Below are positions 3,374 to 19,809 of a DNA stretch of 32,000 nt, in pieces. A program made the position numbers and the translations under genes. The first letter of the stretch is position 1. Every line of letters begins with the position of its first letter. This stretch comes from Methanothermobacter thermautotrophicus str. Delta H. Its GTDB lineage: Archaea > Methanobacteriota > Methanobacteria > Methanobacteriales > Methanothermobacteraceae. The notes under the pieces were generated by a model. It did no database searches. It was not told the DNA's origin and was given only the letters and a program-made list of their open reading frames with translations. Where the stretch lies: the NCBI RefSeq assembly GCF_000008645.1, contig NC_000916.1, forward strand, positions 390,001 to 422,000, read 5' to 3'.

Positions 3374-3420
3374 CTGATAATGAAACTGGTATTCACTGTG
3401 GTGATGGGTGGTGGTTACTT

Positions 3421-6400
3421 ATGAAGAGGATACTTGCTGTTACCACCATGAACAACACGGCCTCACTGAAGGAGGCGCTGACCAGGATAAGGGAGGAACA
3501 TGGGGACATTGTAAGCATAACTAAGGTCTACCTTGAGAAATATGAGGACCCCCGCGTCCCCATGGACGACGTGGCTGAATACATCGATGAATCCGACATA
3601 ATACTCGTGGATATAAGGGGTAACGAGAGGATAGGGAGGGAACTCCCGGGCATCCTCAGGGACAGGGATAAGACAGTCATATCCCTGGTGTGGGGGAGCA
3701 ACCACATACTTTCCCTGACATCCATGGGCAAACTTGATCTTGGTGAACTCGTTGCAGCGGCACCTGGAAGGATAGATTCACTTGTAAGGGAGAGGGACCT
3801 TGAAGCCATACTCGAACTGCATGGGTCAGATGAGATCAGGGATGACCTCAAGAGATGGTTCCAGGCCATGGACTACTATGGGGCCGGCGACCCCGACAAC
3901 CTCATGAACCTGATACTCTTCCTCCTGGACAGCTACACAGACCTGGAGGTTCCCTTCGAGGACCCGGTGGAGATGCCGCCCTACGGCTCTACCTCCCCTT
4001 CAGGGGATTCTACAGGGACCTGGAGTCCTACAGGCGGGCTTCAAACTTCAACCCGGAGCTCCCAACAGTTGGCATGCTCTTCTATTCAGGGATGCACTTC
4101 GATGACACGAGACCCCTGGTTGAGGAACTCTACAGTCGCCTCCATGGAAATGTGAACTGCACCGTGGTCTTCTCGGACGTCGAGAACAACCTGAGGGCCA
4201 TCGAGGAGTACATGGGGGACGTGGACCTCTTTGTCAACATGCAGTACTTCCAGCTGAACCGGGCCCCCTGGGCGGCGACCCTGAGGCCACAAGGAGGCTC
4301 CTGAGGAGGATAGGCGCCCCATACCTCATCTGCCTGAGGGGCTATGAGACAGACCTCGACGAATGGGAGGCAGGTGGTGATGGCCTCAACCCGATGGAGA
4401 TAGTTCTTGGCATAACACTCCCTGAACTTGACGGAGGCTTTGAACCGGTATTCACGGCGGGTATGAGGACTCTCAATGACCCCGACCTGGGGGAGGTGAG
4501 GGTTGTTGACGTGGTGCCAGAGCGCATGGACAGATTCGCTGCAAGGATACTCAACTGGCTGAAGCTGAGGACAATGGAGAACCATGAGAAGAGGATAGGG
4601 ATAATCCTCTATGACTACCCTCCGGGGGAGGCCAACCTTGGAAACGCGGGCTACCTTGACGTATTTGAAAGCCTGGAGGTTTTCCTCAGGAGGCTGAGGG
4701 AGAGGGGATACAGTGTGAGGATACCTGATGAACCCATCAAGGATATTCTCATGAGGGAGGGACTCATCAACAGTCCATCCTACCATGAATATGGCGGCCA
4801 GAGGATCCCCCTCAGTGATTACCTGGAATTTTTCAGTCGTCTGCCAGAGAGGATCCAGGATGATGTGAGGGCAAGGTGGGGCGAACCACCGGGGGAGCTG
4901 ATGGTTGATGGTGATGACATCATCATCCCGGTGACTGAACTGGGCTCGGTCTACCTGTGCATACAGCCCTCCCGCGGGATCATGGAGACCGACAGCTACC
5001 ATAGCAGGGATAATCCACCCCACCACCAGTACCTGGCCTTCTACGCCTACCTCAATTCACTGGGACTTGACGCCATCATCCACTTCGGGATGCACGGGAC
5101 CCTTGAGTTTCTGCCCGGAAGGGAGACCGCCCTGGGGGCTGAATGCTACCCTGACCTGCTCCTGGGGGAGCTCCCCAACATATACCTTTACTGGGCAGGT
5201 AACACCTCAGAGTCGACCATAGCAAGAAGAAGAACCTACGCCCTCCCGGTGGCACATGCGTCACCACCTGTGAGGCAGTCTGACCTCTACGGTGACTACC
5301 TGGTACTGGAAGAACTCATCGACCAGTGGCATGGGGACCCTGATGATGGGTTGAGGGATGAAATAATTGAGAGGGCCTCACAGCTTAACCTGAGGGGGGA
5401 TATCCCTGAGATTGAGTCTGAACTCTTCAGGATGAAAAGGCGACTGATACCAAGGGGCCTTCACATAATGGACTCAGAGTGGGACCCCAATGACATGGTC
5501 AGCTACCTCCTCGGTGTACTCAGATTTGACAGGGAATACCCCTCCATCCATTCAATGGTGGCAGAGAAGCTTGGACTGGATTACAGGGGTTCAATGGATA
5601 CAGCCACAGGATGGGAGATTGAGAGGCACGCGGCTGAGGCTTTGAAGAGGATACTAACAGGGAAGTCAGTGGATCTTCCCCCTGAATACGTTGAATGGGT
5701 GCGTAGCTTATCTGAGCGTTGTGACTTCAGGGGTGAAAGCAGGGGCCTCCTTGAGGCACTTGAGGGAAGGTATGTGAACCCCTCCAGGGGCGGAGACCCA
5801 ATCAGGGACCCTGAGGTATACCCGACAGGCTACTCCATGCACGCCTTTGACCCCATGAAGATACCGGCACCCCTGGCCGAATCAAGGGGCAGGCTTGCAG
5901 CCAGAAAACTCCTTGAGGACTACCTGGAGGAAAATGGGAGGTACCCCGAGACCGTTGCAGTGGTTCTATGGGGATTCGAAACCCTTAAAACAGGTGGAGA
6001 TACCATTTCAATGATCCTGGAACTCCTGGGGGTGCGCATAAACAGGAAGTATGGTCCATGGGCAAAGAACATAGATGTCATACCCCTCAATGAGCTTGGA
6101 AGACCCAGGGTTGATGTCCTGGTGAACATCTGCGGCATATTCAGGGACACACTCGGATCCCAGATTGAGATACTTAACAGGGCCTTCAAAACTGTTGCAG
6201 GTCTTGACGAGGACCCTGAGGATAATTACATCCTGAAACACAACCTTGAGGATGGAGAGGTGAAGGTCCCCCCGAGGATATTCGGACCTGGACCAGCGGA
6301 GTATGCCAGCAGCATCCCTGATATCATAGGAGGTGGTGCCTGGGATCAGGAGGATGAACTGGCAGCAGCCTACCTGGGGGAGATGTGTTACGCCTATCTC

Positions 6401-6973
6401 CCGGATTCTGTGAGAGAGGCACCGGATGAATTCAGGAGGAACCTCCAGAGGGTTGAGCTCGTGGCCCAGGAGAGGGATAACGTGGAGTATGAGGTGACAG
6501 ACCTTGACCATTACTATGAATTCATGGGCGGCCTCACCTCCTCGGTGCGGAACCTGGGGGGTTCCTGCAGCGTCAGGGTCGTGGATTCAACTGAGGATGA
6601 AATCTACGTTGAGGGCCTTGATGAGGTTATAGGGAGGGCTGCAAGGTGCAGAATCCTCAATCCGGTCTGGCTGGATGGGATGCTCGCCCATGACCACCAT
6701 GGTGCCAAGAACATCAAGGACCGGGTGGAACACCTCCTGGGATTCTCTGCAACGACCGGTGCAGTGGATAACTGGGTCTATGATGATGTCGCAGAAACCC
6801 TGATACTTGATGATGAGATGAGGAGGAGGATCTCAGAGAACAACCCCTATGCGGCTGTGAGGATGGGTGAGATACTCCTTGAAACAGCTGAGAGGGGTTA
6901 CTGGGATGCCCCCGATGAGACCCTTAACAGGATCAGGGAGGTTTTTCTTGGCCTTGAATATGAGCTTGAATAG
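3421..6973 (+). pseudogene. cobN: CobN/ChlH-family large chelatase subunit, disrupted by two -1 frame changes (as sequenced)
   Basis: CobN-like sequence runs through three frames:
- Frame 1 from ATG 3421 (MKRILAVTTMNN...) to about 3987.
- Frame 3 from about 3988 to about 4260 (LYLPFRGFYRDLESY...QYFQLN).
- Frame 2 from about 4262 to TAG 6971-6973 (GPLGGDPEATRRLLRRIGAPYLICLRGYE...).
The ORF-track pieces are 3361..4155, 3855..4304 and 4394..6973. The joined length of about 1184 codons fits CobN. Confidence 0.8.
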
Positions 6974-7167: not shown

Positions 7168-8946
7168 ATGCCATCTGCCCTTGTCGTCGAGGACGAGGCT
7201 GTAACCTCCCTTGAACTTTTAAGGCTCCTGGAATCCTGGGGGTATGAAACGGTCAGTGTAAAGACCGGGGAGGATGCCATTGAAACCGCGCTGAGGATGA
7301 AACCCGACGTCATCCTCATGGACATAGTACTCCCCTCAGATGTGGATGGAGTCACAGCAGCAAGGGCCATAAAGAAGGAGATGGACATCCCCCTGATTTT
7401 CATAACAGCCTACTCCAGCAGGGAGGTATTTGAGAGGGCAGCCGAGGTTGAACCTGAGGCCTACCTCCTCAAGCCCTTCAACTCCCGGGAACTTGGATAT
7501 GCAATGGAACTTGCAATCTACAAGAACCGGATCCAGAACCTGCTCTCACATACCAGCAGGAGGTACCAGGAGATACTGGAAACCACAGGTGAGGGTGTCT
7601 GCGTATTCAATGACGATGGAAGCATCCAGTACTGCAATGAGAGGATGGCTGACCTCCTCTCCATGAGAAGGGACGAGATTATCGGAAGGAAGATATTCGA
7701 TTTTATACATCCCTCTGACCGGGAGACCATGGAGCGAATACTTGATTCATGCAGAAGGGGATCCTCGGGTGAACATGAACTCCGCTTCAGGACGGATGAG
7801 GGGACAAGGTGGGTGATACTCTCAGGTCATCCCCTCATTGAATCCTCCGGCTTCAGGGGAGGATTCTGCATGTTCAGGGATATAACGCCCCAGAAGATGC
7901 TTGAAAGGATGCTGAGGAGAAACAACAGCTGCCTCAGACTTCTAAGCAGGATCAACCGCCAGGCAGCCATCTCAGCCACCCCTCAGGAATTGATGGAAGG
8001 GGTTTCCGGGATCCTGATGGAGGTCGGATACTCCGGTGCATCCTTCAGGGAATCTGATGGAACCGTGATTGCAGGGGAGGGTGAAAAAAGAGTATCACCA
8101 CTCCGGCCAGGCATCATCACCTGGGAGGATACCTCAACTGCAGTCATTGAACTTGAAGATTGCAGCAAACCCCTTTACCTTGTGGTCTCAGCCCCCAGGA
8201 TGATTGACGATGAGGAGCTGGGCTTCCTCAGGGAGATAGCATCCAGCACAGCCGGTGCCCTCAGGAGGATGGACTCTGAGCAGAGGATGAATGATATTTC
8301 CTCAAGGTACCGGGAACTCTTTGAGAATGCAGGGGATGCGATATTCCTGGTGAAGGACTTCAGGATAATAGGATGTAACAGCAGGGCCCTTGAACTCTTC
8401 GGGGGAGATGAGGAAGACATACTGGGCAGAAAACCATGGGAGCTATCACCTGAGTACCAGCACCATGGTGAATCCTCAGAAATTGCCCGGGAACTTATTG
8501 AGAGGGCAATGAATGGCGAAAAATGCGAGTTCACATGGATCCACAGAAAGATCAGCGGTGAGACATTCCCGACAAGGGTGGTCCTCAGCAGATCAGGTGA
8601 CATTGTGATGGGCATTGTCAGGGACATGACTGAACTCTACAGGGCCCACAGGAAGTTAAAGGAGGAGCACAGAAAGTTCAGGGACCTGCTGGAGTCCATA
8701 CCCGACCCTACCTTCGCCCTGGATACCCGTGGAAGGGTGATAGCCTGGAACCGTGAGATTGAGAGACTCACAGGTGTGAAAAAGGAAGAGATCCTCGGGA
8801 GGGGTAACAGGGTCTACGCAGTTCCGTTCTATGGCAGGAGGACGCCGGGGCTCCTTGAATTCCTGCTGAACCCTGGAAAGGCCCCTTCAAGGTACCGCAA
8901 CATCAGCAGGGAGGGTAATGCAATCTATGCAGAGGTCCATGTTTAG
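7168..8946 (+). CDS. Response-regulator receiver domain plus several PAS domains; N-terminal fragment of a large hybrid sensor kinase frame, ending at in-frame TAG 8944-8946
   Basis: REC motifs are present (ALVVEDE..., DVILMDIVLP, LLKPF), followed by PAS-type repeats. The last PAS fold is cut by the TAG. Confidence 0.8.
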   Translation: MPSALVVEDEAVTSLELLRLLESWGYETVSVKTGEDAIETALRMKPDVILMDIVLPSDVDGVTAARAIKKEMDIPLIFITAYSSREVFERAAEVEPEAYLLKPFNSRELGYAMELAIYKNRIQNLLSHTSRRYQEILETTGEGVCVFNDDGSIQYCNERMADLLSMRRDEIIGRKIFDFIHPSDRETMERILDSCRRGSSGEHELRFRTDEGTRWVILSGHPLIESSGFRGGFCMFRDITPQKMLERMLRRNNSCLRLLSRINRQAAISATPQELMEGVSGILMEVGYSGASFRESDGTVIAGEGEKRVSPLRPGIITWEDTSTAVIELEDCSKPLYLVVSAPRMIDDEELGFLREIASSTAGALRRMDSEQRMNDISSRYRELFENAGDAIFLVKDFRIIGCNSRALELFGGDEEDILGRKPWELSPEYQHHGESSEIARELIERAMNGEKCEFTWIHRKISGETFPTRVVLSRSGDIVMGIVRDMTELYRAHRKLKEEHRKFRDLLESIPDPTFALDTRGRVIAWNREIERLTGVKKEEILGRGNRVYAVPFYGRRTPGLLEFLLNPGKAPSRYRNISREGNAIYAEVHV

Positions 8947-9276: not shown

Positions 9277-10764
9277 ATGAAGGGGGTCAGGGGAAACCTC
9301 CATGTCATGGTCCACAGGGGTGATCTTCCAGATTCAGGTCAGATGATCCTGAGCTTCAATGACATAACAAAACTCAGGGAGTCCCAGAGGAAACTGAGGG
9401 ATGAAGTCCGTGTTAGAAGGGTCCTCAGTGAAATCTACCCACAAGCGGTCTCAACTGATAATCTGGGGGAATTCACAGAGTACATACTCGATGCTACATG
9501 CAAAGTTACAGGCGCGGATGGAGGAATCATAAGACTGAGAAATGTGGAGACAATCACCATCACAGAAAAGCTGGAACCCCCTGAAGAGGTTCCAGACCTT
9601 GAGGGACTCTCAGAAGATGGTAAAATGATCCGCATAACCTCCTCCTCTGCAGATATGAGCTCAGAGTTCATACTCAGGGGCACCAGCTTCAGCAAAGCGG
9701 ATCTCAGGGCTGTCAGGCACATCTCACAGTACTATATGCTGGCTGTAAAGCAGATCAGCTACAGGAGGAGGATGAATGAGCACTGGAACCACCTCAGGCT
9801 CATAAATATCATACTCAAGCTGGCTGATACAGAAGACCCTGAATTATTCCTCAGGGGAGTCCTTGATTTCATAATCAGATGCCCTGAATTCAATGGGGGA
9901 TCAGCATACCTTGACCCAGATTTAAAGGTTGAGAGGGGATTGATACCTCCAGACAGCATTCCAGATACAGAAGGTGTCCTGGTGGATGGAGAAATCATTG
10001 AGATACCCCTGAGTGTGGATGGGGCTGTAAGGGGTGTCTTAAGGCTCCAGGCAGCATACAGTGACGTTAAAGAAAAAACTGAGTTCCTGGAGGTACTTGG
10101 AGGGGAAATATCCGATGGTCTGCAGCGGATAACCATGCGAAATCAGCTCAGGGAATCCCTCCGTGAGAAGGAGGTCCTGCTGAGGGAGATACACCACCGG
10201 GTCAAGAACAACCTCCAGATAGTGGCAAGTCTGCTGTCCCTCCAGACAGCATATACAGACAACCAGGAGACCCTCAATGTCCTCAGGGATAGCCAGATGA
10301 GGGTCAGGGCCATGGCAGTTGCCCATGAGAAGATATACAGGTCAAGCAGCCTGTCCATGATAAACGTTGGAGACTACCTCAGGGCAATCGCAGAGGAGAT
10401 GACCACCCTGCAGTCCACCGGTGGGCTCCTTGTGGATCTCGATGTCCACTACGATGATATAATGGCCGAGATGGACAGGTGCATCCCCCTGGGCCTGATA
10501 ACCAATGAGATAATCTCCAATTCAATCAAACACGCCTTCACAGGGGACAGGGGCAGGATAGTGATCTCACTCAAGAGGGAGGACGATCTTGGTATCCTTG
10601 AAATATCAGATAACGGCAGGGGGCTCCCTGAGGACTTCAACATTGATGAACTGGAATCACTCGGAATGCAGCTTGTATCAAACCTTGTGATGCAGATTGG
10701 GGGTGAACTGGAATATGGAAACAGGGATGGTGCATTCTTCAGGGTCACGTTCCCACTTGAATGA
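9277..10764 (+). CDS. Sensor histidine kinase C-terminal part (GAF-like region, HisKA_2 H-box, HATPase_c)
   Basis: H-box [21 protein letters not shown]-box ITNEIISNSIKHAF and G-box ISDNGRGLPEDF. The frame is open from 9223 (directly after the TAG) to the listed ATG at 9277. Confidence 0.8.
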   Translation: MKGVRGNLHVMVHRGDLPDSGQMILSFNDITKLRESQRKLRDEVRVRRVLSEIYPQAVSTDNLGEFTEYILDATCKVTGADGGIIRLRNVETITITEKLEPPEEVPDLEGLSEDGKMIRITSSSADMSSEFILRGTSFSKADLRAVRHISQYYMLAVKQISYRRRMNEHWNHLRLINIILKLADTEDPELFLRGVLDFIIRCPEFNGGSAYLDPDLKVERGLIPPDSIPDTEGVLVDGEIIEIPLSVDGAVRGVLRLQAAYSDVKEKTEFLEVLGGEISDGLQRITMRNQLRESLREKEVLLREIHHRVKNNLQIVASLLSLQTAYTDNQETLNVLRDSQMRVRAMAVAHEKIYRSSSLSMINVGDYLRAIAEEMTTLQSTGGLLVDLDVHYDDIMAEMDRCIPLGLITNEIISNSIKHAFTGDRGRIVISLKREDDLGILEISDNGRGLPEDFNIDELESLGMQLVSNLVMQIGGELEYGNRDGAFFRVTFPLE

Positions 10765-10765
10765 A

Positions 10766-12007
10766 CTATTCCACCCTTCCAGCGCCCCTGAGCATCAGGG
10801 ACCTTTCTATCCTGGCTATGAAGTACTTCATCCTCAGGATCTTATCCGGGCTTGTGGATATACCGTCAACACCCATCTCAACAAGTCTCCTGACTAGCAT
10901 GTAGCTGGTTGCAGCGTATCCAGCGGCGTAGACATTCACACCACCCTCATGACAGGCGCCTATAACATCTTCCACCAGTCCAAGCACTGCATGGTGTGAG
11001 AGGTTAAAGAGGCCGGCCACGCGGGTGCTTCTGCGGTCAACTGCAAGGCTGCACATTGTGAGGTCACTCATGCCAAGGGATATGAAATCAGCGCCAGCGG
11101 CCAGGAGTTCATCAATCTGGAGGGCCACCGATGGTGTCTCCACTGATGCCCCGACCACTATATCCCTGTGGGGCGTGATTCCTGACTCCTCCAGGAGTTC
11201 AACTGCAGTCACGTACTCATCCACGTCCCTGAGAAATGGGAACTTAAGCTGGAGGTTCCTGTAACCAGAATCCAGGAGGTTCCCCAGGGCCTCAAATTCA
11301 GCCATCAGGATCTCAGGTTCCATCAGGTCCCTTGTTATGGCCCTCATCCCAAGGAACGGGTTCCTCTCAGAGGCTTCGAAGGAGCCCCTGAGATTTGTGA
11401 GCTCATCAACAGGGATATCGAAGGTCCTGAATATGACGGGTTTAGGGTGAAAGGCCTCAAGTATCTCCCTGAGCCCCTTCTCAAGGACTCCTGCCAGTTT
11501 TCCCTCTTTCAGGAGGAGGTGGGGGTGTTTCCCGGTCTCTATCACCATATTTTCTATCCTTACTGAGCCGACACCGTCTGCGAATTCAGCCACCTTTGGT
11601 GCCAGCCAGGGAAAGTTGAGGTTTACCATGACATCGGTGGCTGTCTCATGGAAACCGGGGGTATCCTCAGCCTTCACCCAGTCCATCACCCCGCGGTAGA
11701 TCCCCCCTGTTTTTCCATCAACAGTTACTATCATACCTTCACGGAGGACCTCAGTGGCAACCTCTGTTCCAAGGACACAGGGTATGCCAAGCTCCCGGAG
11801 GGTTATCGCGGCGTGACTTGTGAGGCCGCCGTAGTTTGCTATGACAGCGCCTGCCCTCCGGATCTCCGGTAGCATGTCCCGGGATATCTTCCTGAAAACA
11901 GCCACCTCTCCCCATTCAAGGTTCCTCGCGTCCTCGAGGTTCCTTATTATGCGGACCCTTCCACTGCTCCTGCCTGCACCCGCACCAATACCCCTCAGAA
12001 TCTGCAT
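10766..12007 (-). CDS. PEP-utilizing enzyme: swivelling phosphohistidine domain plus PEP/pyruvate-binding TIM-barrel domain, without the N-terminal ATP-grasp (PPDK_N) domain
   Basis: The mobile-domain motif GGLTSHAAITLRELGIPCV lies near the N-terminus and a C-terminal PEP-utilizer barrel follows. At 413 aa it is only the C-terminal two thirds of a PEP synthase. Confidence 0.75.
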   Translation of the reverse strand: MQILRGIGAGAGRSSGRVRIIRNLEDARNLEWGEVAVFRKISRDMLPEIRRAGAVIANYGGLTSHAAITLRELGIPCVLGTEVATEVLREGMIVTVDGKTGGIYRGVMDWVKAEDTPGFHETATDVMVNLNFPWLAPKVAEFADGVGSVRIENMVIETGKHPHLLLKEGKLAGVLEKGLREILEAFHPKPVIFRTFDIPVDELTNLRGSFEASERNPFLGMRAITRDLMEPEILMAEFEALGNLLDSGYRNLQLKFPFLRDVDEYVTAVELLEESGITPHRDIVVGASVETPSVALQIDELLAAGADFISLGMSDLTMCSLAVDRRSTRVAGLFNLSHHAVLGLVEDVIGACHEGGVNVYAAGYAATSYMLVRRLVEMGVDGISTSPDKILRMKYFIARIERSLMLRGAGRVE

Positions 12008-12242
12008 GAATATATATCTGTTTTATCACAGTAAAATAATCTTTTCAGTATGGTGAGGTTTCTTCTACTTTTTTGTTCACGTGAGCGCTGACATCTTTGC
12101 ATGGCAAAGGGTTTCCTCTGATTTTTTCAGAGTGGATTCCTGGATTGATTACTGCCTGATGAGGAATGAGGTATGACCACGTGTGCTCTGTTGACATGTA
12201 TGTTGTCTCCCTTCTGCTGCAGAAATCCCTTTCAGTATTTAA

Positions 12243-12405
12243 GTGTTTCGGTTTTTTGGTGTGTTTGTGTTGTTTTTCTGGTCTTTTTGGGTCTGTGTTT
12301 TGTTTTTTTGTTCTTTTTTGTGTTTGTTTGAGTACCTCGAGTCTTTTCTGAGTCTGTGTGTCTTTGTGGTGATTTTGTTTGTGTTTCTGGGTTTGTTGGT
12401 GGTGC
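12243..12405 (+). repeat. Low-complexity G/T-only block with T-tracts phased at about 10-11 bp
   Basis: 12251-12330 contains no A and only 4 C on the plus strand. T-runs of 4-7 nt are centred near 12254, 12265, 12275, 12286, 12299, 12306, 12316 and 12326, and further weaker runs extend to 12393. Confidence 0.8.
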
Positions 12406-12416
12406 TTGAACTTGTC

Positions 12417-12424
12417 GTATATAG
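12417..12424 (+). promoter_or_regulatory. TATA-box-like element (GTATATAG) upstream of the Csx16-like gene
   Basis: It lies 33-40 nt upstream of ATG 12457, with RBS GAGGTGA at 12446-12452. Confidence 0.35.
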
Positions 12425-12456
12425 TGAGGAGAAACAATTCTATCCGAGGTGATTTT

Positions 12457-12804
12457 ATGTGTAATGAAATGGATAATGGTAGAATATATATTATTACGAG
12501 GCACCAGAGTACTGTGCACTGGATACTGGCTAAACTGAATGGTAAGGGCCTTGACCGGGACGTCTTCGTGACTGGTCATCTTAGTAATGAGATGATGCTG
12601 AGGATGAGAAAAGGTGATATTGTTTACGGTATTCTCCCTATCCACCTGATCCGGAGGTTACTCCGTAAGGGTGTTGAGTACTTCCATGTGGTTCTCCCTC
12701 ATGTCCCGTATGAGCTTCGTGGTAAGGAGCTGACTCTGAAACAGGTTAAGGAGTTTGGTGGTCAGATCTGGAAGATTGATGATATTAAATGTTTTAAGGT
12801 TTGA
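12457..12804 (+). CDS. Csx16-like (Cas_VVA1548 family-like) small protein, orphan (no cas neighbourhood)
   Basis: 115 aa. The motif order IYIITRHQSTVHW ... KGDIVYGILPIHLIRRLL ... YFHVVLPHVPYELRGKELTLKQVKEFGGQIWKI matches my recollection of Csx16 (ITRH.GA..W, GD.V.G.LP..LAA, P.E.RG.ELS......GA.L). The ATG at 12457 follows a strong SD. The longer ORF-track start at 12379 lies in the G/T block and is unlikely to be real. Confidence 0.55.
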   Translation: MCNEMDNGRIYIITRHQSTVHWILAKLNGKGLDRDVFVTGHLSNEMMLRMRKGDIVYGILPIHLIRRLLRKGVEYFHVVLPHVPYELRGKELTLKQVKEFGGQIWKIDDIKCFKV

Positions 12805-12810
12805 TGAATA

Positions 12811-12900
12811 ATGGTTCGAATTAATGGATTACCTCTTTTTGGAGTCATCGGTGTTATGGGATTATTTATGGTTGATGAAGCTTTTGTTGATGTTTTTTGA
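12811..12900 (+). CDS. Possible 29-aa hydrophobic micro-protein (not in the ORF track)
   Basis: My translation is ATG 12811 ... TGA 12898-12900, giving MVRINGLPLFGVIGVMGLFMVDEAFVDVF. It has one TM-like segment and only a weak SD-like AAGGT about 10 nt upstream. No homology support is possible here. Confidence 0.2.
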   Translation: MVRINGLPLFGVIGVMGLFMVDEAFVDVF

Positions 12901-12966
12901 GTAGGTGGAGCTGTTAAAGATGGTAGATTTAGAAAGACAGAATAAGTTACCGGACGGGTTTATGTC

Positions 12967-13764
12967 ATGTCAGATATTGATGATGAAACGGCTGATGTAC
13001 TGGTGGAGCTAGTTAATGAGTATGAATATGAACACCTGCTTGATAAGGAATCAGTTAATGATGGATGGAAACGTTTCACTGAGGCATTCTATGATGATAA
13101 TAAGGAGATGCTGTGTGATACGGCATTTAATTATGTTATAGATGGTATGCCCGATGATGGGATTAGAGAGGTTTTTAGTAGGACCTACCTGGATAACAGG
13201 GAGTACATTATTTCATCCTTCAGGTATGATGAAGACTTTATTGCATATTTTGATGCAGATTATATGGATCTTGATCTGAGTAACGTGGATTTAGGGGATT
13301 TTGATCCTCTAATGGTCAGGTCATGGTTTATTGATATGTTGCTACCTGTTGCACTGTATATCACTGAGGTCATGGTTGATTTTTCTTATGATCTGGAGTC
13401 GTATTGTAGCGTCTACACCTTTACGGTTGAGGACGGTGAGATTGTTGATGTGGAGTTCAATGAACGGTTTATTGATGGTGAAGGTATGATGGACCTATCA
13501 GAGCACAGCCTCTTGGAGAAACTGGATGAAATAAAGAACCCCTTCGACATGAACAGGAGAATGAGAAAGATCTGCAGCACAGATGTGGGGCGGGAAGAGG
13601 CACTCAGAATGTCTTATTTCTTTGATTGTGTTGATTGTGAGGTCAAAGTGGATATCCTGAAGTACACCTTTGATTTCCTCTGCCGGCTGGCACCCGATGA
13701 GACAGCCTCATATTACATATCAAAGGCAAGAGATCACATGTTTGAGATTTACCAGATAGAATGA
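12967..13764 (+). CDS. Hypothetical hyper-acidic protein (265 aa), no recognisable domain
   Basis: ORF track. By hand count it has 65 Asp+Glu versus 23 Lys+Arg. It is the only long ORF here and shows consistent codon structure. The SD is weak. Confidence 0.6.
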   Translation: MSDIDDETADVLVELVNEYEYEHLLDKESVNDGWKRFTEAFYDDNKEMLCDTAFNYVIDGMPDDGIREVFSRTYLDNREYIISSFRYDEDFIAYFDADYMDLDLSNVDLGDFDPLMVRSWFIDMLLPVALYITEVMVDFSYDLESYCSVYTFTVEDGEIVDVEFNERFIDGEGMMDLSEHSLLEKLDEIKNPFDMNRRMRKICSTDVGREEALRMSYFFDCVDCEVKVDILKYTFDFLCRLAPDETASYYISKARDHMFEIYQIE

Positions 13765-13876
13765 TTCTCTGACGCGGAAAAAACGCAGATAGATGGATTT
13801 ATTACAGAATAAGAAGTGGTTGCCAGCATATTCAGGATCTCTAAATTAGATCATCATGATCCCGGTGAAAAGCCTC

Positions 13877-14314
13877 TCATTCAGATTTTCTGGAGGATCT
13901 GGCTTCAATGAAACTTAAAATATACTCTGAATAGAGGTCGAAGTCTTCAAGGCGGTTTGCAAGGACCTCTGCAATTATGGCAGGGTCAACATCCGTATAC
14001 ATGTGGACAAGAATGTTTCTCAGACCAGCAGCTTCAGAGAATCGCTCTGCAAATTCATGTGGAAGTATTCTGTGCTTTTCAAGGATCTCAATGATGTCTC
14101 TGTAGGTCTCGGGCTTTTCAAGATCCTCCATTGAGATAATAATCTCCCCAGTATCCAGAGCAGATTCAATGGCAAGCTGGAGGTTTCTCTCAATTGCAGA
14201 TCTCAGGAGGTAGTCCTCTGAAAGTTCTCTTTCTGATGCCCTGTGTTCTTTAAGGAACTCAACATAGGAGTTCATGATCTTTATTCTATTAGCGACCCTC
14301 TCAATATCATTCAT
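13877..14314 (-). CDS. hepT: HEPN-domain (DUF86) toxin HepT of a type VII HepT/MntA toxin-antitoxin pair
   Basis: It carries the R-x4-H HEPN motif (RNILVH). The likely start is the internal Met (MNDIERV...) at 14314, which overlaps the upstream MNT stop by 8 nt. The ORF-track start at 14410 lies inside the mntA coding sequence. Confidence 0.75.
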   Translation of the reverse strand: MNDIERVANRIKIMNSYVEFLKEHRASERELSEDYLLRSAIERNLQLAIESALDTGEIIISMEDLEKPETYRDIIEILEKHRILPHEFAERFSEAAGLRNILVHMYTDVDPAIIAEVLANRLEDFDLYSEYILSFIEARSSRKSE

Positions 14315-14720
14315 GGCTGTCGTCTCTCCTTTCAATGTACCTGGATACCCATCTCCTGTCATAGTATCTTCTATCCAGGTACCTTGAGAGTATGTAGTGT
14401 TCAAAGTCAACCTTCACGGACTTATTTTCAATTAAAGGCTTTCTAGACTTTATTATTTCATAATTAAGATTTACAGGAGCATCATTCATTATTACAAGGT
14501 CAATCCTGTCAGATTTGAGCAGAGATGTAAGTTCTGATATTAATTCAAGTTTCACCTTGGACCTTTCAACCCTATCCAGATCATCATCAAGGAGTACTCC
14601 GATGTCAATGTCACTTAGAGGTCCTCCCCTTTCAGATGCCATCGAACCGAACAGGTAAGCCATCTTAACCTGAGCCTTATCTTTAAAGTAGCGCCTCAGC
14701 ATCTCCATGACATCTTTCAT
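14307..14720 (-). CDS. mntA: Minimal nucleotidyltransferase (MNT) antitoxin MntA
   Basis: It carries the nucleotidyltransferase motif GSMASERGGPLSDIDIGVLL (G-S-x...D-x-D). The start was chosen at MKDVMEMLRRYF (14720). The GTG extension to 14768 is unsupported. Confidence 0.75.
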   Translation of the reverse strand: MKDVMEMLRRYFKDKAQVKMAYLFGSMASERGGPLSDIDIGVLLDDDLDRVERSKVKLELISELTSLLKSDRIDLVIMNDAPVNLNYEIIKSRKPLIENKSVKVDFEHYILSRYLDRRYYDRRWVSRYIERRDDSHE

Positions 14721-14903
14721 GTGATTCCATATAAGGCCGATGCCATATACAATTTTCGTCGTGAGCACTAGATGGACTCTGCACCTGCAGTAATCGGATG
14801 TTGATATGGCTGTTAATTAAATAAATGATATAGCTCTTTATTCTCTATTTAAGAAGTTTTTCGTGGAAGGAATGTAAATCTCTGTATCTGCATTCAGTTA
14901 CTG

Positions 14904-14908
14904 AAAAA
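14904..14908 (-). terminator. Oligo-T (T5 on the minus strand) just downstream of the DUF368 gene
   Basis: The minus-strand sequence CTACTTTTTCAG lies 16-20 nt after the stop at 14924. Confidence 0.3.
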
Positions 14909-14923
14909 GTAGAACTGGAGGAT

Positions 14924-15793
14924 TCAGTAGTCAATGTAGTCAAAGCGGCTCTCAAGTATCATAACGATTGCAAAGCCAGTGATGGCTATTACAGCCGATA
15001 TTATGATTGAGTAGGTATCAACCATTGATATCTTGTTGTAGGGCAGCCTGAGGGTGCCTATCATGAGCCCCACAAGGAATGACATGGTGATGGCCTCATG
15101 GTTCCTGAGGAGGTAGTCGAGGACCCTCGAGAAGCTCATTATACCTATGGCCGCACCTGCAATGAAGGTCACAATTTCAACTATGGCCAGCCTGTTAAGA
15201 ACCCCGAGCATGTACTCGTACTGGTTCAGGAGAAGGAGAAGAAAGGCTCCTGATATACCTGGCAGTATCATGGCGCATATCGCCACAAAACCTGATATGA
15301 AGATCACTGGCAGGGTATGGTTTGCCTGTATAGGGTTAAGGCCCACAAAGAGGTAGGCGAATATCAAGCCTGCTCCACCGGCTGCAAGATTCTTAACCGA
15401 AAGGCCATTGATCTTCTGGTAGACTATGTATGCCGATGCAAGTATTAGGCCTGAGAAGAAGGCGTAGGTGTATGCTACGTAGTTTGTTATGAAGAAAAGT
15501 ATGACCTTGGACAGCGTCAGCATGGCGAATGCTATACCTGTGAGGAGTGGTATGAAGAGTTCAAAGTCAACCTCATCCCTCATGGATTCCCGGGCACCTG
15601 CAAGGTCACCCCTGAGGAGTGGCTTTATGAATCCAAATTTTATGCTGCTTATCGCATGCACCAGCCTCTCATATATACCTGTTATGAGTGCTATGATCCC
15701 TCCTGAAACCCCGGGCATCACATCCGCGCTTCCCATGAAAAGTCCGCGAAGGAATATTGCCAGAAAACTCCTGAATTTTTCATAGTAATCCAT
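14924..15793 (-). CDS. DUF368-family polytopic membrane protein (family linked in bacteria to undecaprenyl-phosphate recycling)
   Basis: It carries the duplicated signatures MPGVSGGIIALITGIYERL and ILPGISGAFLLLLL. The start at 15793 (MDYYEKF) is preceded by GGAGGA. The ORF-track start at 15883 overlaps the upstream gene and has no RBS. Confidence 0.75.
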   Translation of the reverse strand: MDYYEKFRSFLAIFLRGLFMGSADVMPGVSGGIIALITGIYERLVHAISSIKFGFIKPLLRGDLAGARESMRDEVDFELFIPLLTGIAFAMLTLSKVILFFITNYVAYTYAFFSGLILASAYIVYQKINGLSVKNLAAGGAGLIFAYLFVGLNPIQANHTLPVIFISGFVAICAMILPGISGAFLLLLLNQYEYMLGVLNRLAIVEIVTFIAGAAIGIMSFSRVLDYLLRNHEAITMSFLVGLMIGTLRLPYNKISMVDTYSIIISAVIAITGFAIVMILESRFDYIDY

Positions 15794-15841
15794 CAGAATC
15801 CTCCATCCCTGGAATTGAAGAAGATATTTATGACCTTCAAG

Positions 15842-15850
15842 CATATAAAG
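15842..15850 (-). promoter_or_regulatory. TATA-box-like element (CTTTATATG on the minus strand) for the DUF368 gene
   Basis: It lies about 50-57 nt upstream of ATG 15793, in the 86-nt gap after the NERD gene. Confidence 0.35.
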
Positions 15851-15879
15851 ATGTGGTATTTTCAGTAGTCGGGCCTCAG

Positions 15880-16749
15880 TCACCAGACCTCTGAGGAGTG
15901 CTTCCTCAGAACCTCGACTATACTGTTCACCTTACCCTCACCGAGCATGAGACGGCTTCTTGATATGTGGTCGGGGATCTGGCAGGGCTTCATTATCAGG
16001 CAGTATTCGTCATCCTCGATGATGGTGCAGGAGCTGTTGATGAATGCCACAATTGCATTTACCCATGAGACGTAGATGTCCTCTGATTCAAGGAACTCCT
16101 TGAGTATGGCGGCATTTCTCTTTGACTGGATGGATGGTGATCTTATCTCCTCCTTCCTGAGGTCGTCATCCAGGAACCAGCGGTCACCCCTCACTATATA
16201 GTTTCCTGAGTAGGATTTTGTCTCGATCACATAGACCCCTGTGGGCCCCACAACAACGTGATCGATGTTTCCGTGGGCACCTGGCAGGTGAACGTCGTTG
16301 AAGATGTGATATCCTTGCGGGAGCCTTCTGAGGCAGCTGGCCACTATGAGTTCACCCACATAACCTTTTGTCCAGCCCATACCCCTCATTTCACCTGTCC
16401 TCATGATTGCAAGGGACAGTAACATGATGGTAGGGCCGGCCAGGACCAGAATTATGGCCCATTTAAGACCTGTGATTAGAAGTAGTATGCCTGAGGCGAA
16501 GGTGATTGCAGCCAGAGGGAGGGCCCAGTGCCCCATACCCGAGAGCCTCCAGTACCTCTCAGCCTTCTTCTGGGTGTGGGTCCTCTTAAAGGATTCTGGA
16601 ACACTCTTTGTCAGGTTACGGTACTCGTTGAGGCTGTTAACGTAGAGTAGAAGTGACCCGCACTCGTCGCACATGTAGAATACCCAGAATTCCTCTTCAG
16701 AGTTGATCTGCCAGTAGTGGTTACAGTTCTCACATATGAGGTAGGCCAT
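15880..16749 (-). CDS. Membrane-anchored NERD (nuclease-related domain) protein with an N-terminal zinc ribbon
   Basis: The N-terminus has CENC...CDEC (4 Cys). Two TM helices follow (WALPLAAITFASGILLLITGL, AIILVLAGPTIMLLSLAIM). The NERD core is GYVGELIVASCLRRLPQGYHIFNDVHL...GNIDHVVVGPTGVYVIETKSYSG. Confidence 0.75.
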   Translation of the reverse strand: MAYLICENCNHYWQINSEEEFWVFYMCDECGSLLLYVNSLNEYRNLTKSVPESFKRTHTQKKAERYWRLSGMGHWALPLAAITFASGILLLITGLKWAIILVLAGPTIMLLSLAIMRTGEMRGMGWTKGYVGELIVASCLRRLPQGYHIFNDVHLPGAHGNIDHVVVGPTGVYVIETKSYSGNYIVRGDRWFLDDDLRKEEIRSPSIQSKRNAAILKEFLESEDIYVSWVNAIVAFINSSCTIIEDDEYCLIMKPCQIPDHISRSRLMLGEGKVNSIVEVLRKHSSEVW

Positions 16750-16954
16750 GATATCACTTAAAGACGATTTCCATTCTTAGTTATCGGAGGAGTTCATTAT
16801 ATCTTTTTCCTTGAGGGCGGTTTTGTGATTACATAACAATATGCTTGATGCATGATAAAGGCGCAGGTTCTAAGGGTGATACTGGTCATGAAATCTGGGT
16901 GAAGAGGGTTTCTGTTTAATCCTCTGGTTCATGCAGTGGTAGTGTACCTGGATA

Positions 16955-17023
16955 GATCTTTATGTAATCTTCAGAGTGAGAACATTACTTAGAACATTCC
17001 GATATACTGATCTTTATGTAATC
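16955..17023. repeat. Two exact 15-bp direct repeats GATCTTTATGTAATC (16955-16969 and 17009-17023)
   Basis: Read directly from the sequence; start-to-start spacing is 54 bp. Each repeat contains the TTATGTAA core that recurs six times between 16829 and 17980. Confidence 0.9.
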
Positions 17024-17198
17024 CTATGAGGGTACCCAACCGTATATTGGCTCCATGTAGAATCTGGCCTTTATTTTTTCCTGCGACTATTGCCATCCCA
17101 TGATTTTGTTTCTCTTTAGCAATCCTGCAGTCATCCTTTAAACCTGGTTTTGCATCAGAACTGAAGAGCAGAAGGGAAAACGGCCCCAGATTCTAAAG

Positions 17199-17207
17199 TT
17201 TTATAAG
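17199..17207 (+). promoter_or_regulatory. TATA-box-like element (TTTTATAAG) for the RHH gene
   Basis: It lies 37-45 nt upstream of ATG 17244. The predicted TSS falls on the TTATGTAA copy at 17223-17230. The SD is AGGGGTG at 17229-17235. Confidence 0.4.
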
Positions 17208-17243
17208 TGCCGGAGACCAAGTTTATGTAAGGGGTGTAATCTT

Positions 17244-17405
17244 ATGGTTGGAAGGAGACCCGGAGGAGGACTTAAAGACACGAAACCCGTTGTTGTCAGA
17301 CTCTACCCTGATGAAATAGAGGCCCTTAAAAGCAGAGTCCCGGCAAATACAAGCATGAGTGCCTACATCCGCAGGATAATTCTCAATCACCTGGAAGATG
17401 ATTAA
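17244..17405 (+). CDS. Ribbon-helix-helix (CopG/Arc/MetJ-type) DNA-binding protein, 53 aa (absent from the ORF track)
   Basis: My translation is MVGRRPGGGLKDTKPVVVRLYPDEIEALKSRVPANTSMSAYIRRIILNHLEDD*. It shows the classic beta strand (PVVVRL), helix 1 (PDEIEALK) and helix 2 (SMSAYIRRIILNHL) layout, with an SD and TATA upstream and a T6 terminator downstream. The listed antisense ORF 17223..17408 is the shadow of this gene. Confidence 0.7.
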   Translation: MVGRRPGGGLKDTKPVVVRLYPDEIEALKSRVPANTSMSAYIRRIILNHLEDD

Positions 17406-17411
17406 CAACTA

Positions 17412-17417
17412 TTTTTT
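17412..17417 (+). terminator. Oligo-T (T6) terminator candidate directly after the RHH gene
   Basis: ATTTTTTAAT lies 7 nt after the TAA at 17403-17405. Confidence 0.4.
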
Positions 17418-17945
17418 AATTAGTAATATCATAATTTTATCCATCATTTAATTTTTATCTGGAGGCATTGCAATCGGTGAAGGTGCTGTAAGGTGGTGAT
17501 GTATATCCTCTGATGGTCCTGACCGGGACTCCATCACACCATTCCTGATAGGTGTGAACTTAAAGTGAAAGTCCTTCATGGATTTGTGTCACACCTTCAG
17601 TTCGACCTTTTAATTTTTGCAGGGTAAAGTTGTGCGGGAATTGGGTAATTAAACCGTTCAGTATATATGGTGCTGGTGATTTACACCCATTTGAGACCAT
17701 TTTCATTTTTCATGCTAAACTCAGAATAACCTTCGTTAAACGATAATATAGCGAAGTTGAATATTTCCTGTTCCTCCAATTTTCGTGTCATGGGGTAGAG
17801 AGTATATGTTTATCAGAACTCATTAAATTCGGAGGCTGACATACCATGTTCACCCCCTCGAGAGAGGAGTATGTATTTATCAGAGAATCGGAATGATGTT
17901 TTTCTGTTTCCTTTAGGGTTCAGGTGGCAGGGAGTTTTTCTGATT

Positions 17946-17981
17946 CTTATGTAACAGGAATCTATGTCACAGTTACATAAG
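17946..17981. repeat. Perfect 10-bp inverted repeat CTTATGTAAC / GTTACATAAG with a 16-nt spacer
   Basis: The arms are at 17946-17955 and 17972-17981. Both contain the TTATGTAA core. Confidence 0.9.
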
Positions 17982-18144
17982 GACTCTCAGGATCCTGCAA
18001 AACTCATTCATCGGTTAGCGAAAAATCATGAGACTTTAACATGAAGGCATGAAATTTCTTTCAGTTCTTGCTTTATCTGGTTATCCGCCATGGCGTATCA
18101 GTTCCAGCAGTATTCCATTTCTACTTTATCGCTGTACCAGAATG

Positions 18145-19809
18145 TTACACAGGGAAGCTTATCCTGAACTCAGTGCCATGATCCCGTCTGATGGTGAGGG
18201 TTCCATCCAGCTGCTCGGTGAGTATACTCACCAGGCTGAGACCCAGGGTATCAGTGTTCTCAGGCTCAATATCCTCAGGTAAACCAACACCATCATCAGC
18301 AACCACCAGCGAAACATCATCATCATGGGATCTGATCCTCACCGTCACACTGCCGGTCCCATCAGGGAAGGCGTACTTGACACTGTTTGTCACAAGCTCA
18401 TTTATTATGAGGCCAAGGGGTATCGCAGTGTCAATATCTGGTTTTATGTCATCAACTTCAATAACCTTCCTTATGCTGCTCCCATGGGAGATGATTATAT
18501 CCTCCACCAGCCTCTCTACATAGTCCCTGAAGTTGATGCTGGCAAGGGATTCTGAACGATAGAGGTGCTCATGTATCATTGCCATCACCTTTATGCGTCC
18601 CTGGCTTTCCATCAGCACATCGCGGACCTCTTTACCCTCTGTTCCAAGGCTCTGGAGGTTCAGGAGACTTGATATTATCTGGAGGTTGTTCTTGACCCGG
18701 TGGTGCACCTCCCTTAAGAGGAGTTCCTTCTCACTGAGGGATCTCCGGAGATTCTCCTCAGCCTCCTTGATTTCCGTGATATCCACCATGGAGGTCACGC
18801 TTTTCGCGGTGCCCGGGATCATGCCCACTATCATCTGCATGTGCCTGACTTCACCGTGCCGGTTTTGAAATCTGAAGGTGTACCTTCTAGGTGCGAGGCG
18901 CGGATCCCTCCTTCGGATTTTATGATACTCCATCATCCTTTCAAGGTCCTCGTCCACCACGAACTCGGTCCAGCTCTTTTTCCCCTCTATCTCATCCCCT
19001 GAGTAGCCGCTCAGTCTCTCAAATTCTCTGTTGGCAAGGATTATGGTGGTGTCCTCATCCACTATGGTGGTCGCAGCCCCGGTGTTCTCGAATATGGTCC
19101 TGTAGAGTTTTTCCTTCTCCTCGAGTTCCTCTTGAAGCTGTTTTTCCTTTGCGCGGTCCTCATAAACCGCCACCACCTCACCTGAGGGTAATCTGTACAC
19201 GAAGTTTTCCCTCCAGCCACTTATTCTCTCGTCCCGGTACTCTGTGAGGGGGTAGTGCTCAGGATTTCCCGTCCTGTATACTCTCCTGAGGACATCAAGG
19301 AGTCCGAACTCCTCCACACCGGGAAACACCTCAGTCACCCTTTTTCCAAGGACATCCTCCCTCTTAATCCTCTCAGTCTCCTCAGCGGCCCTGTTGAAGT
19401 CAGTGAATAGGAAATCCTCACCATCATCCACGGCCTCATAGACTGCGACACAGGTATTGATATTCTCAAAGAGTTCTCTGTAGCGTTCCTCCTCCAGAAC
19501 AAGTCTCCTGATGATAAAATCCATACACGCCTTAATTTCCTCTGTTCCAGGTGGCTTTTCAAGGCATCCATGGGGGCAGGTTACAACAACGTTCTCATCA
19601 AAGTCCAGGAGGTACATGAATGGTACCCTGATGTCGCATGAAGCCCATCGGCTGACCCTAGCAGGGGTTGTGTATATCAGTACCGTGTCGGCCTCGGCGG
19701 CTCTTTCAATTTTGTCGGCGACGGTCACCTCAACTCCGGCGGAGCTGAGCTTCTCCAGGAGATCAGACACATCGGCTTCAGTGTCCCTTACGAGAAGGAT
19801 CCTGAGCAT
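18145..19809 (-). CDS. Sensor histidine kinase: degenerate receiver-like N-terminus, two PAS domains, HisKA_2 and HATPase_c
   Basis: H-box [21 protein letters not shown]-box [15 protein letters not shown] and G-box [15 protein letters not shown] signatures follow coiled linkers ([16 protein letters not shown]). An SD GGAGGG lies upstream of the ATG. Confidence 0.85.

Follow-up and report, generated by a model that had tools for sequence, protein, structure and literature searches.

The chromosome of Methanothermobacter thermautotrophicus ΔH carries a stand-alone copy of csx16, a CRISPR-associated gene, inside a small insertion that also contains virus-related genes. It lies in a stretch of 32,000 nt (NC_000916.1, positions 390,001–422,000) that was analysed as a whole and is called hereafter the window; all positions refer to it unless another contig is named. 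The reading that we prefer, with a probability of about 0.6, is that this csx16 is virus-derived and that its product most likely degrades cyclic tetra-adenylate (cA4) of the host, damping or resetting the type III protein Csm6, while the gene of a very acidic protein located downstream would represent fused viral early genes, linked to csx16 physically and not functionally. A preliminary description of the same DNA had proposed a portable module composed of csx16, a 29-codon hydrophobic open reading frame (ORF) and the acidic gene, working together in anti-defence or defence tuning directed by cyclic oligoadenylates (cOA). The idea of a virus-borne anti-CRISPR origin fits the data obtained, because the nearest relatives of csx16 were found on viruses, whereas the three-part module was not supported.

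Csx16 of the ΔH chromosome and its relatives in viruses

Residues 11–108 of the 115-amino-acid (aa) product of csx16 were aligned with positions 1–89 of the 91-position Pfam profile PF09652 (Cas_VVA1548; E 5.8e-31, 107 bits at a cut-off of 25), that is with the whole domain, and the same family was recognised by NCBIfam model TIGR02620 (50.9 bits, cut-off 46.35) and by the Csx16 model of PADLOC (E 1e-36). The assignment made earlier from the motif order is thus borne out, and the motifs themselves can be read directly: IITRH at residues 12–16, KGDIVYGILPIHL at residues 52–64 and PYELRGKELTLKQVKEFGG at residues 84–102. The name given to the ΔH protein by NCBI is also ‘CRISPR-associated protein Csx16’. 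Invariant residues were defined from an alignment of 12 sequences of the Csx16 clade, and all of them (T14, R15, H16, Y57, G58, L60, P61, H63, L64, G72, L80, P81, R88, G89, E91, L92 and G101) are intact in the window protein, including those of polar or catalytic type (T14-R15-H16, H63, R88 and E91). The literature searched does not establish the catalytic residues of Csx16 (PMC8284326), and no solved structure of the family was detectable in PDB by sequence.

Csx16 has been predicted to be a ring nuclease and is partly similar to DUF1874 (PMC8284326). In vitro, cA4 was cut by one representative, whereas cA3 and cA6 were not degraded (bioRxiv 10.1101/2024.09.24.614671), so that membership in a ring-nuclease family, mentioned in the preliminary description, has since gained an experimentally defined specificity. 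The ΔH protein is accordingly predicted to be a small CARF-like enzyme cutting cA4. As for the host, the best activator of the type III protein Csm6 of ΔH (DSM 1053) is A4>P (bioRxiv 10.1101/153262), and the ΔH type III system is entered among cA4-activated ones (PMC6755085). Activation of host Csm6 by A4>P/cA4 makes a chromosomal brake on type III signalling, which had been one of the roles suggested for this gene, plausible: if expressed in trans, csx16 most likely lowers cA4 and thereby damps or resets the host type III system. The earlier statement that the genes have their own TATA and Shine-Dalgarno signals holds for csx16 as regards candidate signals (TATATA and GAGGTGA), but the Shine-Dalgarno sequence located by the acidic gene serves ATG 12920 rather than the start codon at 12967. 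An alternative candidate promoter, a TATTTAAG box, is present near position 12237, and a start there would yield a GU-rich leader.

It is known that Csx16 is typically encoded in type III loci (bioRxiv 10.1101/2024.09.24.614671). Profile scans of the window proteins (Pfam and NCBIfam) registered no cas gene in the whole 32 kb, and neither a CRISPR-like array nor a tRNA was found in the same range, which for cas genes and arrays agrees with the preliminary description. Within 32 kb, therefore, csx16 is neither inside nor next to a type III locus, and the viral members of the family are likewise devoid of this context. Full-length matches to profile hidden Markov models (HMMs), a size of about 100–115 aa, the TRH, GxLPxHL and RGxEL motifs and a host with cA4-activated Csm6 make the ΔH copy similar to Csx16 of type III loci; it differs from them in the absence of a cas gene or array from 32 kb, in its position within a small insertion with virus-related genes and in having viral closest relatives. 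Unlike a virus-encoded anti-CRISPR gene, it was found not on a virus or plasmid genome but in the chromosome, where at least eight assemblies have it in one and the same place.

When phage records were searched by tblastn with the window Csx16, three records of only two viruses were obtained: Methanobacterium virus PhiF3, the host of which is M. thermautotrophicus FF3 (ORF30, 44% identity, E 4e-13), and Methanobacterium virus Drs3, represented by two records (ORF3, 34% identity). In both of them csx16 is located at the genome end. A published survey registered Csx16 in 2 of 28,114 phage genomes (bioRxiv 10.1101/2024.09.24.614671). A word-indexed search of a protein database gave 10 relatives. 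Two of them, P0009 and P0008 (77–79% identity to the window Csx16), are encoded by contigs of about 36 kb with terminase, portal, PCNA and helix-turn-helix genes; P0012 (58%) comes from contigs that encode a C39/PMBR peptidase resembling Pei together with tail proteins and TGT/DUF5591, and copies on contigs with this peptidase and tail genes show 58–60% identity; P0013 (42%) originates from a 61-kb contig with unannotated genes. P0005 and P0010 (75–83%) turned out to be other alleles of the same chromosomal site, so that, counting the window, no fewer than three different alleles are intact in chromosomes. Six more viral csx16 loci were found in IMG/VR. In a neighbour-joining tree three chromosomal alleles stand beside the viral clade of L016 type, within an otherwise viral radiation. 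One more relative, P0007, differs only in its start residue from the csx16 ORF reconstructed from an IMG/VR locus (L030), and P0006 joins residues 1–80 of chromosomal P0005 to the last 34 residues of viral P0007; this chimeric composition identifies P0006 as a virus/host recombinant. Judging by these sequence comparisons, csx16 of ΔH is probably of viral ancestry, the other members of its clade being carried by tailed viruses that infect Methanobacteriales. In such viruses the gene, often situated near the genome or contig end, would presumably serve as an anti-CRISPR by destroying the alarm signal of type III systems.

The opposite direction of transfer, with csx16 displaced from a type III locus of the host by rearrangement and taken by viruses from their hosts, seems highly improbable. 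It is in line with the usual residence of Csx16 in type III loci and with the NCBI name of the protein, but every relative with readable context is either viral or situated at this same non-cas site, the gene belongs to a 2.87-kb insertion with virus-related genes and with a G/T-rich tract also seen 5′ of viral csx16, and the 32 kb contain no cas gene.

In its logic the viral origin of such a gene resembles that of AcrIII-1/Crn2 (DUF1874), phage Crn4b and Csx20, that is of small viral enzymes that degrade cA4 and blunt type III immunity. Homologues of ring nucleases of the AcrIII-1/Crn2 type are also encoded by cells, and there their role may be to reset signalling. Csx16 of ΔH differs from AcrIII-1/Crn2 in belonging to another sequence family and in being chromosomal, not viral, and no demonstration of anti-CRISPR activity was found for any Csx16 in the literature searched. 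With PhiF3 and Drs3 the similarity extends beyond the family itself: the former infects M. thermautotrophicus and has a G/T tract upstream of csx16, the latter has an acidic ORF downstream. However, csx16 of these viruses occupies genome ends, and the genes following it bear no relation to the acidic protein encoded in the window. Compared with the copies of PhiF3, Drs3 and two further viral contigs (L018 and L015), the window Csx16 also has a 5-residue insertion in the K/NGKGLDRDV segment.

Some other genes of the csx16-bearing viral contigs deserve mention. The contigs of about 36 kb with the closest csx16 (77–79%) encode a protein of the RAMP superfamily (PF03787, E 4e-8; L016 10264–13210, L082 7762–9564), and near this gene in L082 there is a 207-aa protein with a weak match to Csf1, the type IV large subunit. 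These RAMP/Csf1-like genes may constitute a virus-borne mini CRISPR-Cas-like module. Several contigs encode DUF5591/TGT-like, i.e. archaeosine tRNA-ribosyltransferase-like, proteins (L018 1480–3000, L031 3162–4681, L015 3294–3944), which may point to 7-deazaguanine modification of DNA as a second anti-defence trait.

The insertion and the alleles of its site

The boundaries of the insertion became evident from comparison with Methanothermobacter sp. Kamch4336 (L076), a metagenome-assembled genome of another species, where genes for NERD, DUF368 and a phosphoenolpyruvate (PEP)-utilising enzyme adjoin each other and csx16, the acidic gene, hepT and mntA are all absent according to tblastn. The 2,870 nt of ΔH correspond there to about 75 unaligned nt between the genes of DUF368 and the PEP-utilising enzyme. 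The content of G+C (GC) does fall from about 0.52 to about 0.40 across 12000–15000, as was implied when csx16 was placed at the left edge of an AT-rich island, but only the segment 12053–14922 is inserted, while the AT-rich NERD and DUF368 genes adjoin the PEP-utiliser also in L076. A viral or other mobile source of the inserted DNA can be assumed. An element bounded by an integrase gene or att sites was considered and rejected, since neither an integrase nor a tRNA was seen and the breakpoints are not flanked by direct repeats. The locus is portable only in the sense that its alleles are swapped by recombination.

The insertion consists of the G/T-rich tract, csx16, the acidic gene, the hepT-mntA pair and a 149-bp piece at the right edge (Table 1). 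The genes hepT and mntA overlap on the minus strand, and both equivalog HMMs score above their cut-offs, which assigns the pair to type VII HepT/MntA. The right-edge segment lies in reverse orientation in the L022–L024 lineage (98% identity, with both flanks collinear). A palindrome as the source of the match in two orientations was ruled out: there is no internal or flanking inverted repeat, which means a true inversion between lineages. This segment could carry the promoter of hepT-mntA.

Table 1. Features of the csx16 locus in the window of the ΔH chromosome
Feature	Position	Strand	Characteristics
Insertion relative to Methanothermobacter sp. Kamch4336 (L076)	12053..14922	.	blastn breakpoints 12052 and 14923; tblastn
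G/T-rich low-complexity tract 5′ of csx16	12240..12408	+	G+T maximum 0.90
Candidate csx16 expression signals	12418..12452	+	TATATA 12418–12423; Shine-Dalgarno GAGGTGA 12446–12452, 4 nt 5′ of ATG; read by eye
csx16, stand-alone Csx16/Cas_VVA1548, predicted cA4 ring nuclease, probable viral ancestry	12457..12804	+	HMM matches, intact invariants, viral relatives
29-codon hydrophobic ORF, judged not a gene	12811..12900	+	compositional artefact, not conserved
Ancestral 5′ end of acidic gene	12903..12966	+	Shine-Dalgarno AGGTGGAG 12903–12910, ATG 12920; out of frame in ΔH
Acidic N-terminal domain, aa 1–172	12967..13482	+	26.7% D+E, fast-evolving
Acidic C-terminal domain, aa 173–265	13483..13764	+	conserved, helical
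hepT, type VII toxin (HEPN RNase)	13877..14410	-	PF01934 E 2.6e-31; NF047751 120.9 bits (cut-off 60)
mntA, type VII antitoxin (nucleotidyltransferase)	14307..14768	-	PF18765, PF01909; NF047752 83.3 bits (cut-off 60)
Right-edge segment, 149 bp, 5′ of mntA (mntA start to DUF368 stop)	14770..14918	.	inverted in L022–L024 lineage

The G/T-rich tract is the sole stretch of the window with a G+T fraction of at least 0.8 (window mean 0.51, standard deviation 0.06). Degenerate repeats were detected in it by TRF at 12246–12330, and an Rfam scan of 11900–18200 revealed no RNA family for it. Comparable tracts are present 5′ of csx16 in viral contigs L031 and L015, in PhiF3 and in the chromosomal L022 allele, so that this sequence is read as non-coding viral DNA that probably arrived with csx16. 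In L031 (IMGVR_UViG_3300033998_000398, positions 1–1650) about 850 nt 5′ of viral csx16 have a G+T fraction of 0.82–0.94 and contain GGGTGGTGGTA tandemly repeated 5.9 times, with GTGTTGGTGCCTG repeated 7.6 times at the contig end; this region may be a genome terminus, an origin or a packaging region.

Four states of the site were distinguished among the chromosomes. Apart from (a) the ΔH type, represented by the window itself, these are (b) the L022 and L084 types, with csx16 identical to that of the window by 75–83%, an additional upstream ORF of AbrB/MazE type and an acidic protein identical by 47% in its N-half and by 95% in its C-half; (c) the L025 and L077/L078 types, where csx16 has become a pseudogene, with a 47-aa truncation in the former and a 75-aa internal deletion in the latter, and where two intact genes, separate from each other, encode the N and the C part of the acidic protein; and (d) L076, from which the insertion is absent. 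In L077 hepT is frameshifted and mntA is mostly deleted. The small AbrB/MazE-like ORFs (PF04014) of state (b) lie 5′ of csx16 at L022 2211–2432 and L084 1390–1548, and in the virus type of L018/L031 such an ORF is found two genes 3′ of csx16 (L018 1219–1389); such ORFs add one more virus-like component to the variable cassette.

Divergence of the window from L022, estimated according to Nei and Gojobori as numbers of synonymous (dS) and non-synonymous (dN) substitutions per site, differs sharply along the site. For csx16 dS is 0.76 and dN 0.079 (dN/dS 0.10) and for the acidic N-domain 0.81 and 0.44 (0.54), while for the acidic C-domain these values are only 0.038 and 0.023 (0.59) and for the flanking gene of the PEP-utiliser 0.068 and 0.011 (0.165). 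Since synonymous divergence of the first two exceeds that of the C-domain and the flank so greatly, csx16 and the N-domain are old alleles swapped as a block between conserved flanks. Linkage within the block is not absolute, as P0010 is combined with an N-domain of L022 type at 100% identity, i.e. csx16 alleles reassort against N-domain alleles. Comparison of csx16 with the allele of virus L016 gave the same dN/dS of 0.10 at higher divergence (dS 1.35, dN 0.14). Thus, purifying selection acted on csx16, while constraint on the N-domain was much weaker. In the preferred reading the chromosomal gene stays intact under this selection and is at times replaced by recombination with divergent alleles, including viral ones.

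These values are important for evaluation of another explanation, according to which a virus or other mobile element left this insertion as a fragment now in decay, and csx16 and the acidic ORF of ΔH remain intact only for lack of time, contributing nothing to fitness. We consider it possible but unlikely. Degradation of csx16, hepT and mntA across the L025 and L077/L078 lineages, the frameshifted ancestral start of the acidic gene in ΔH, the lack of the entire insertion in another Methanothermobacter species (L076) and the fact that no integrase or att site was seen are all what an inert remnant should exhibit; on the other hand, dN/dS of csx16 equal to 0.10 in both the chromosomal and the viral comparison implies constraint (part of this history may be viral), every clade-invariant residue of Csx16 is intact, at least three distinct intact alleles persist in chromosomes, and the N and C genes are open in every lineage bearing the insertion.

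Some circumstances weigh against the reading of csx16 as a virus-derived ring nuclease acting on host cA4. Its conversion into a pseudogene in two sister lineages (L025; L077/L078) indicates that the gene is dispensable and could be a neutral remnant in ΔH too. Since the eight assemblies that share the allele are nearly clonal, its identity among them says little on constraint. Finally, the viral origin is deduced from a tree without outgroups from CRISPR-locus Csx16, with only 10 relatives in the protein search and none in a scan of species-representative genomes with the Csx16 alignment, where the ΔH region is apparently unsearchable and the absence of relatives is weak evidence.

The acidic gene and the ORF preceding it

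Two genes of the early region of viruses are fused in the acidic gene. In ΔH the ORF 12967–13764 encodes 265 aa with exactly 65 Asp+Glu and 23 Lys+Arg, as had been counted by hand; with 24.5% D+E, an isoelectric point (pI) of 4.05 and a net charge of −42 this protein has the lowest pI among 23 proteins of the window, the others containing 4–20% D+E. In agreement with the preliminary description no domain was recognised in it by Pfam, NCBIfam, PHROGs or PADLOC; a set of 50,697 phage records contained no match according to tblastn, and a sequence-profile search of PDB was empty. The family is very small: 3 clusters were found in 5.8 billion sequences with a single-sequence query and 6 with a profile query, and full HMMER gave 5 matches, mostly fragments, among 1.84 billion representatives. 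That the protein is composite follows from its two domains. Between chromosomal allele classes the N-domain is identical by 29–47% (dN/dS 0.32–0.54) and the C-domain by 80–99%. The former is a separate gene in the L025 and L077 lineages, the latter is a separate 92-aa gene in L077/L078 (P0019, 83% identity), and the fusion point in ΔH coincides with the position of the start codon of this separate C gene (MMDLSE). The C-domain also stands alone in viral contigs L028 and L035 as a 71/92-aa gene with 40–43% identity (E 1e-14 by tblastn; E 4e-23). All parts were encountered, as separate genes, in the virus IMGVR_UViG_3300033998_000398 (47,484 bp; contigs L028 and L079 belong to the same virus type). 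It has csx16 (60% identity), an N-domain homologue of 194 aa (31% identity over residues 26–171, E 9e-15) and, about 4.5 kb from the latter, a C-domain homologue of 92 aa (43% identity) in an early/replication block with NrdD, a 648-aa protein and PolB.

The start of the acidic gene was also altered. Chromosomal homologues of 281 aa begin with MVDLERQNKLPDGVYVM and the viral N-homologue with MNLLKRQNKVQDGFYRM, and the upstream start with 16 codons is conserved in other strains and in this viral protein; because these forms keep the upstream start, ATG 12920 behind AGGTGGAG is the ancestral one. In ΔH, GGG (12956–12958) stands instead of GGGG, the same allele being present in eight assemblies including ΔH, and as a result the first 16 codons are out of frame and the 265-aa ORF is left without its own Shine-Dalgarno sequence. 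Programmed frameshifting at GGG-TTT-A as a means to rescue the ancestral start was dropped, as the necessary −1 shift misfits the canonical X-XXY-YYZ site in the zero frame.

The suggestion that the acidic protein is a DNA mimic gained no support from comparison. Like Ocr, ArdA, AcrF2 and AcrIIA4, it is strongly negative and encoded on DNA of mobile ancestry beside a gene of anti-defence type, but it shares neither sequence nor fold similarity with them, is larger (265 aa) and is composed of two domains, the viral homologues of which are not acidic. The viral N-homologue has pI 5.0 (16% D+E, 12.9% K+R), the C-homologue even pI 9.5, so that extreme acidity is a trait of the Methanothermobacter copies rather than of the family, which weakens the mimic idea; moreover, cytoplasmic proteins of the host are already acidic and the contrast is smaller than it appears. 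An AlphaFold model built with 4 sequences had a predicted local distance difference test score (pLDDT) of 56 and was left out of the fold search. The model based on 9 sequences was used (mean pLDDT 71.6, about 70–96 in 10-residue blocks for N-domain residues 21–170 and 42–61 for the C-domain), and Foldseek found nothing significant for it in PDB (best E 1.8) or BFVD (best E 0.24).

The 29-codon ORF between csx16 and the acidic gene does exist, but it is no more than expected by chance among the 71 ORFs of at least 25 codons that overlap the examined region of 6 kb. The G+T fraction around it is 0.72–0.73, and G/T-rich sequence lacking A for stop codons tends to give open frames encoding V, G, F and L. 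Its invariance in eight near-identical strains is uninformative; in the divergent L022 allele it is absent, the spacer there being formed by about 330 unrelated nt, as well as in L077, where the spacer has only 79 nt.

That Csx16, the micro-peptide and the acidic protein act together in cOA-directed anti-defence or defence tuning, with the acidic protein as, for instance, a DNA mimic, appears quite improbable from these data. Anti-defence genes do tend to cluster, the three ORFs follow each other closely in one orientation, a single recombination event exchanged csx16 together with the N-domain (dS 0.76 and 0.81), the N-domain evolves fast, and the gene directly following csx16 in Drs3 (ORF2) also encodes a very acidic protein (49 D+E and 17 K+R of 190 aa). 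However, BLASTP and hhalign revealed no relatives of the acidic protein among genes 3′ of csx16 in Drs3, L015, L018 and L028, and for lack of this similarity the acidity of Drs3 ORF2 is treated as coincidence or convergence. The pair was sought elsewhere in genomes and viruses and found at only one chromosomal site of Methanothermobacter, the only virus holding all parts has them kilobases apart, csx16 alleles reassort with respect to N-domain alleles, some lineages lost csx16 yet keep the N and C genes, and the micro-ORF is not conserved. The acidic gene, which most probably arrived with or beside csx16, is not its conserved partner.

A broader role of the variable part of the locus is rather doubtful, though still conceivable. 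csx16 and the N-domain would then form a hypervariable cassette traded between chromosomes of Methanothermobacter and viruses, and the acidic protein, the fold of which found no match in PDB or BFVD, would be a new family of defence or counter-defence, engaged for example in superinfection control or in inhibiting some other system of the host. The fusion in ΔH would report partnership of the N and C proteins, and the host would tune its immunity with captured viral genes.

Surroundings of the locus and its significance

The window was compared with CP064324.1, another version of the M. thermautotrophicus ΔH genome (PMC10579436), and proved identical to it by 99.975%, with 5 differences, none of them inside the csx16 locus described here. 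Exactly the same Csx16 and acidic proteins are encoded at the identical chromosomal site in several Methanothermobacter genomes (about 1.72–1.75 Mb) and in many metagenomes. Elsewhere the window contains genes of cobalt/ECF transport proteins, CobN, PAS/HisKA_2 kinases, a UvrD-PD-(D/E)XK helicase, a thiamine pyrophosphate enzyme and an ABC transporter, in addition to the NERD, DUF368, PEP-utilising and HepT/MntA proteins mentioned above. The cobN gene is split in the window into ORFs 3361–4155 and 4394–6973 by 1-nt gaps at 3984 and 4260 relative to CP064324, where it is one gene of 1184 aa, and these gaps are likely sequencing differences between the two ΔH genome versions. The ORFs 7168–8946 (592 aa, response-regulator/PAS) and 9277–10764 (495 aa, HisKA_2 kinase) of ΔH correspond to one protein of 1198 aa in other strains (L001–L005). 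In the AT-rich segment 16750–18145 (about 1.4 kb) the sole conserved small ORF, 17244–17405 (53 aa, ribbon-helix-helix-like by eye), is called by gene callers in every strain.

The locus is not a new kind of system: the Csx16 family, its activity, its presence in two archaeal virus genomes and the name of the ΔH protein are known. The literature searched contains no description of the orphan position of csx16, of its viral ancestry and recombination with viral alleles or of the composite acidic protein. Surveys of ring nucleases were confined to a few kb of cas10, and one of them to at most 6 kb from type III loci (bioRxiv 10.1101/2024.09.24.614671), so that copies lying farther away escape notice, and off-switches may accompany a larger share of type III systems than has been estimated. 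Some general considerations can be added. ΔH is genetically tractable, and since its Csm6 is characterised as activated by A4>P/cA4, the role of an orphan virus-derived ring nuclease is directly testable in this organism. With its allele replacement, chimeric allele, fusion of viral genes and decay in sister lineages, the locus illustrates, in compact and natural form, how genes pass between viruses of archaea and host chromosomes.

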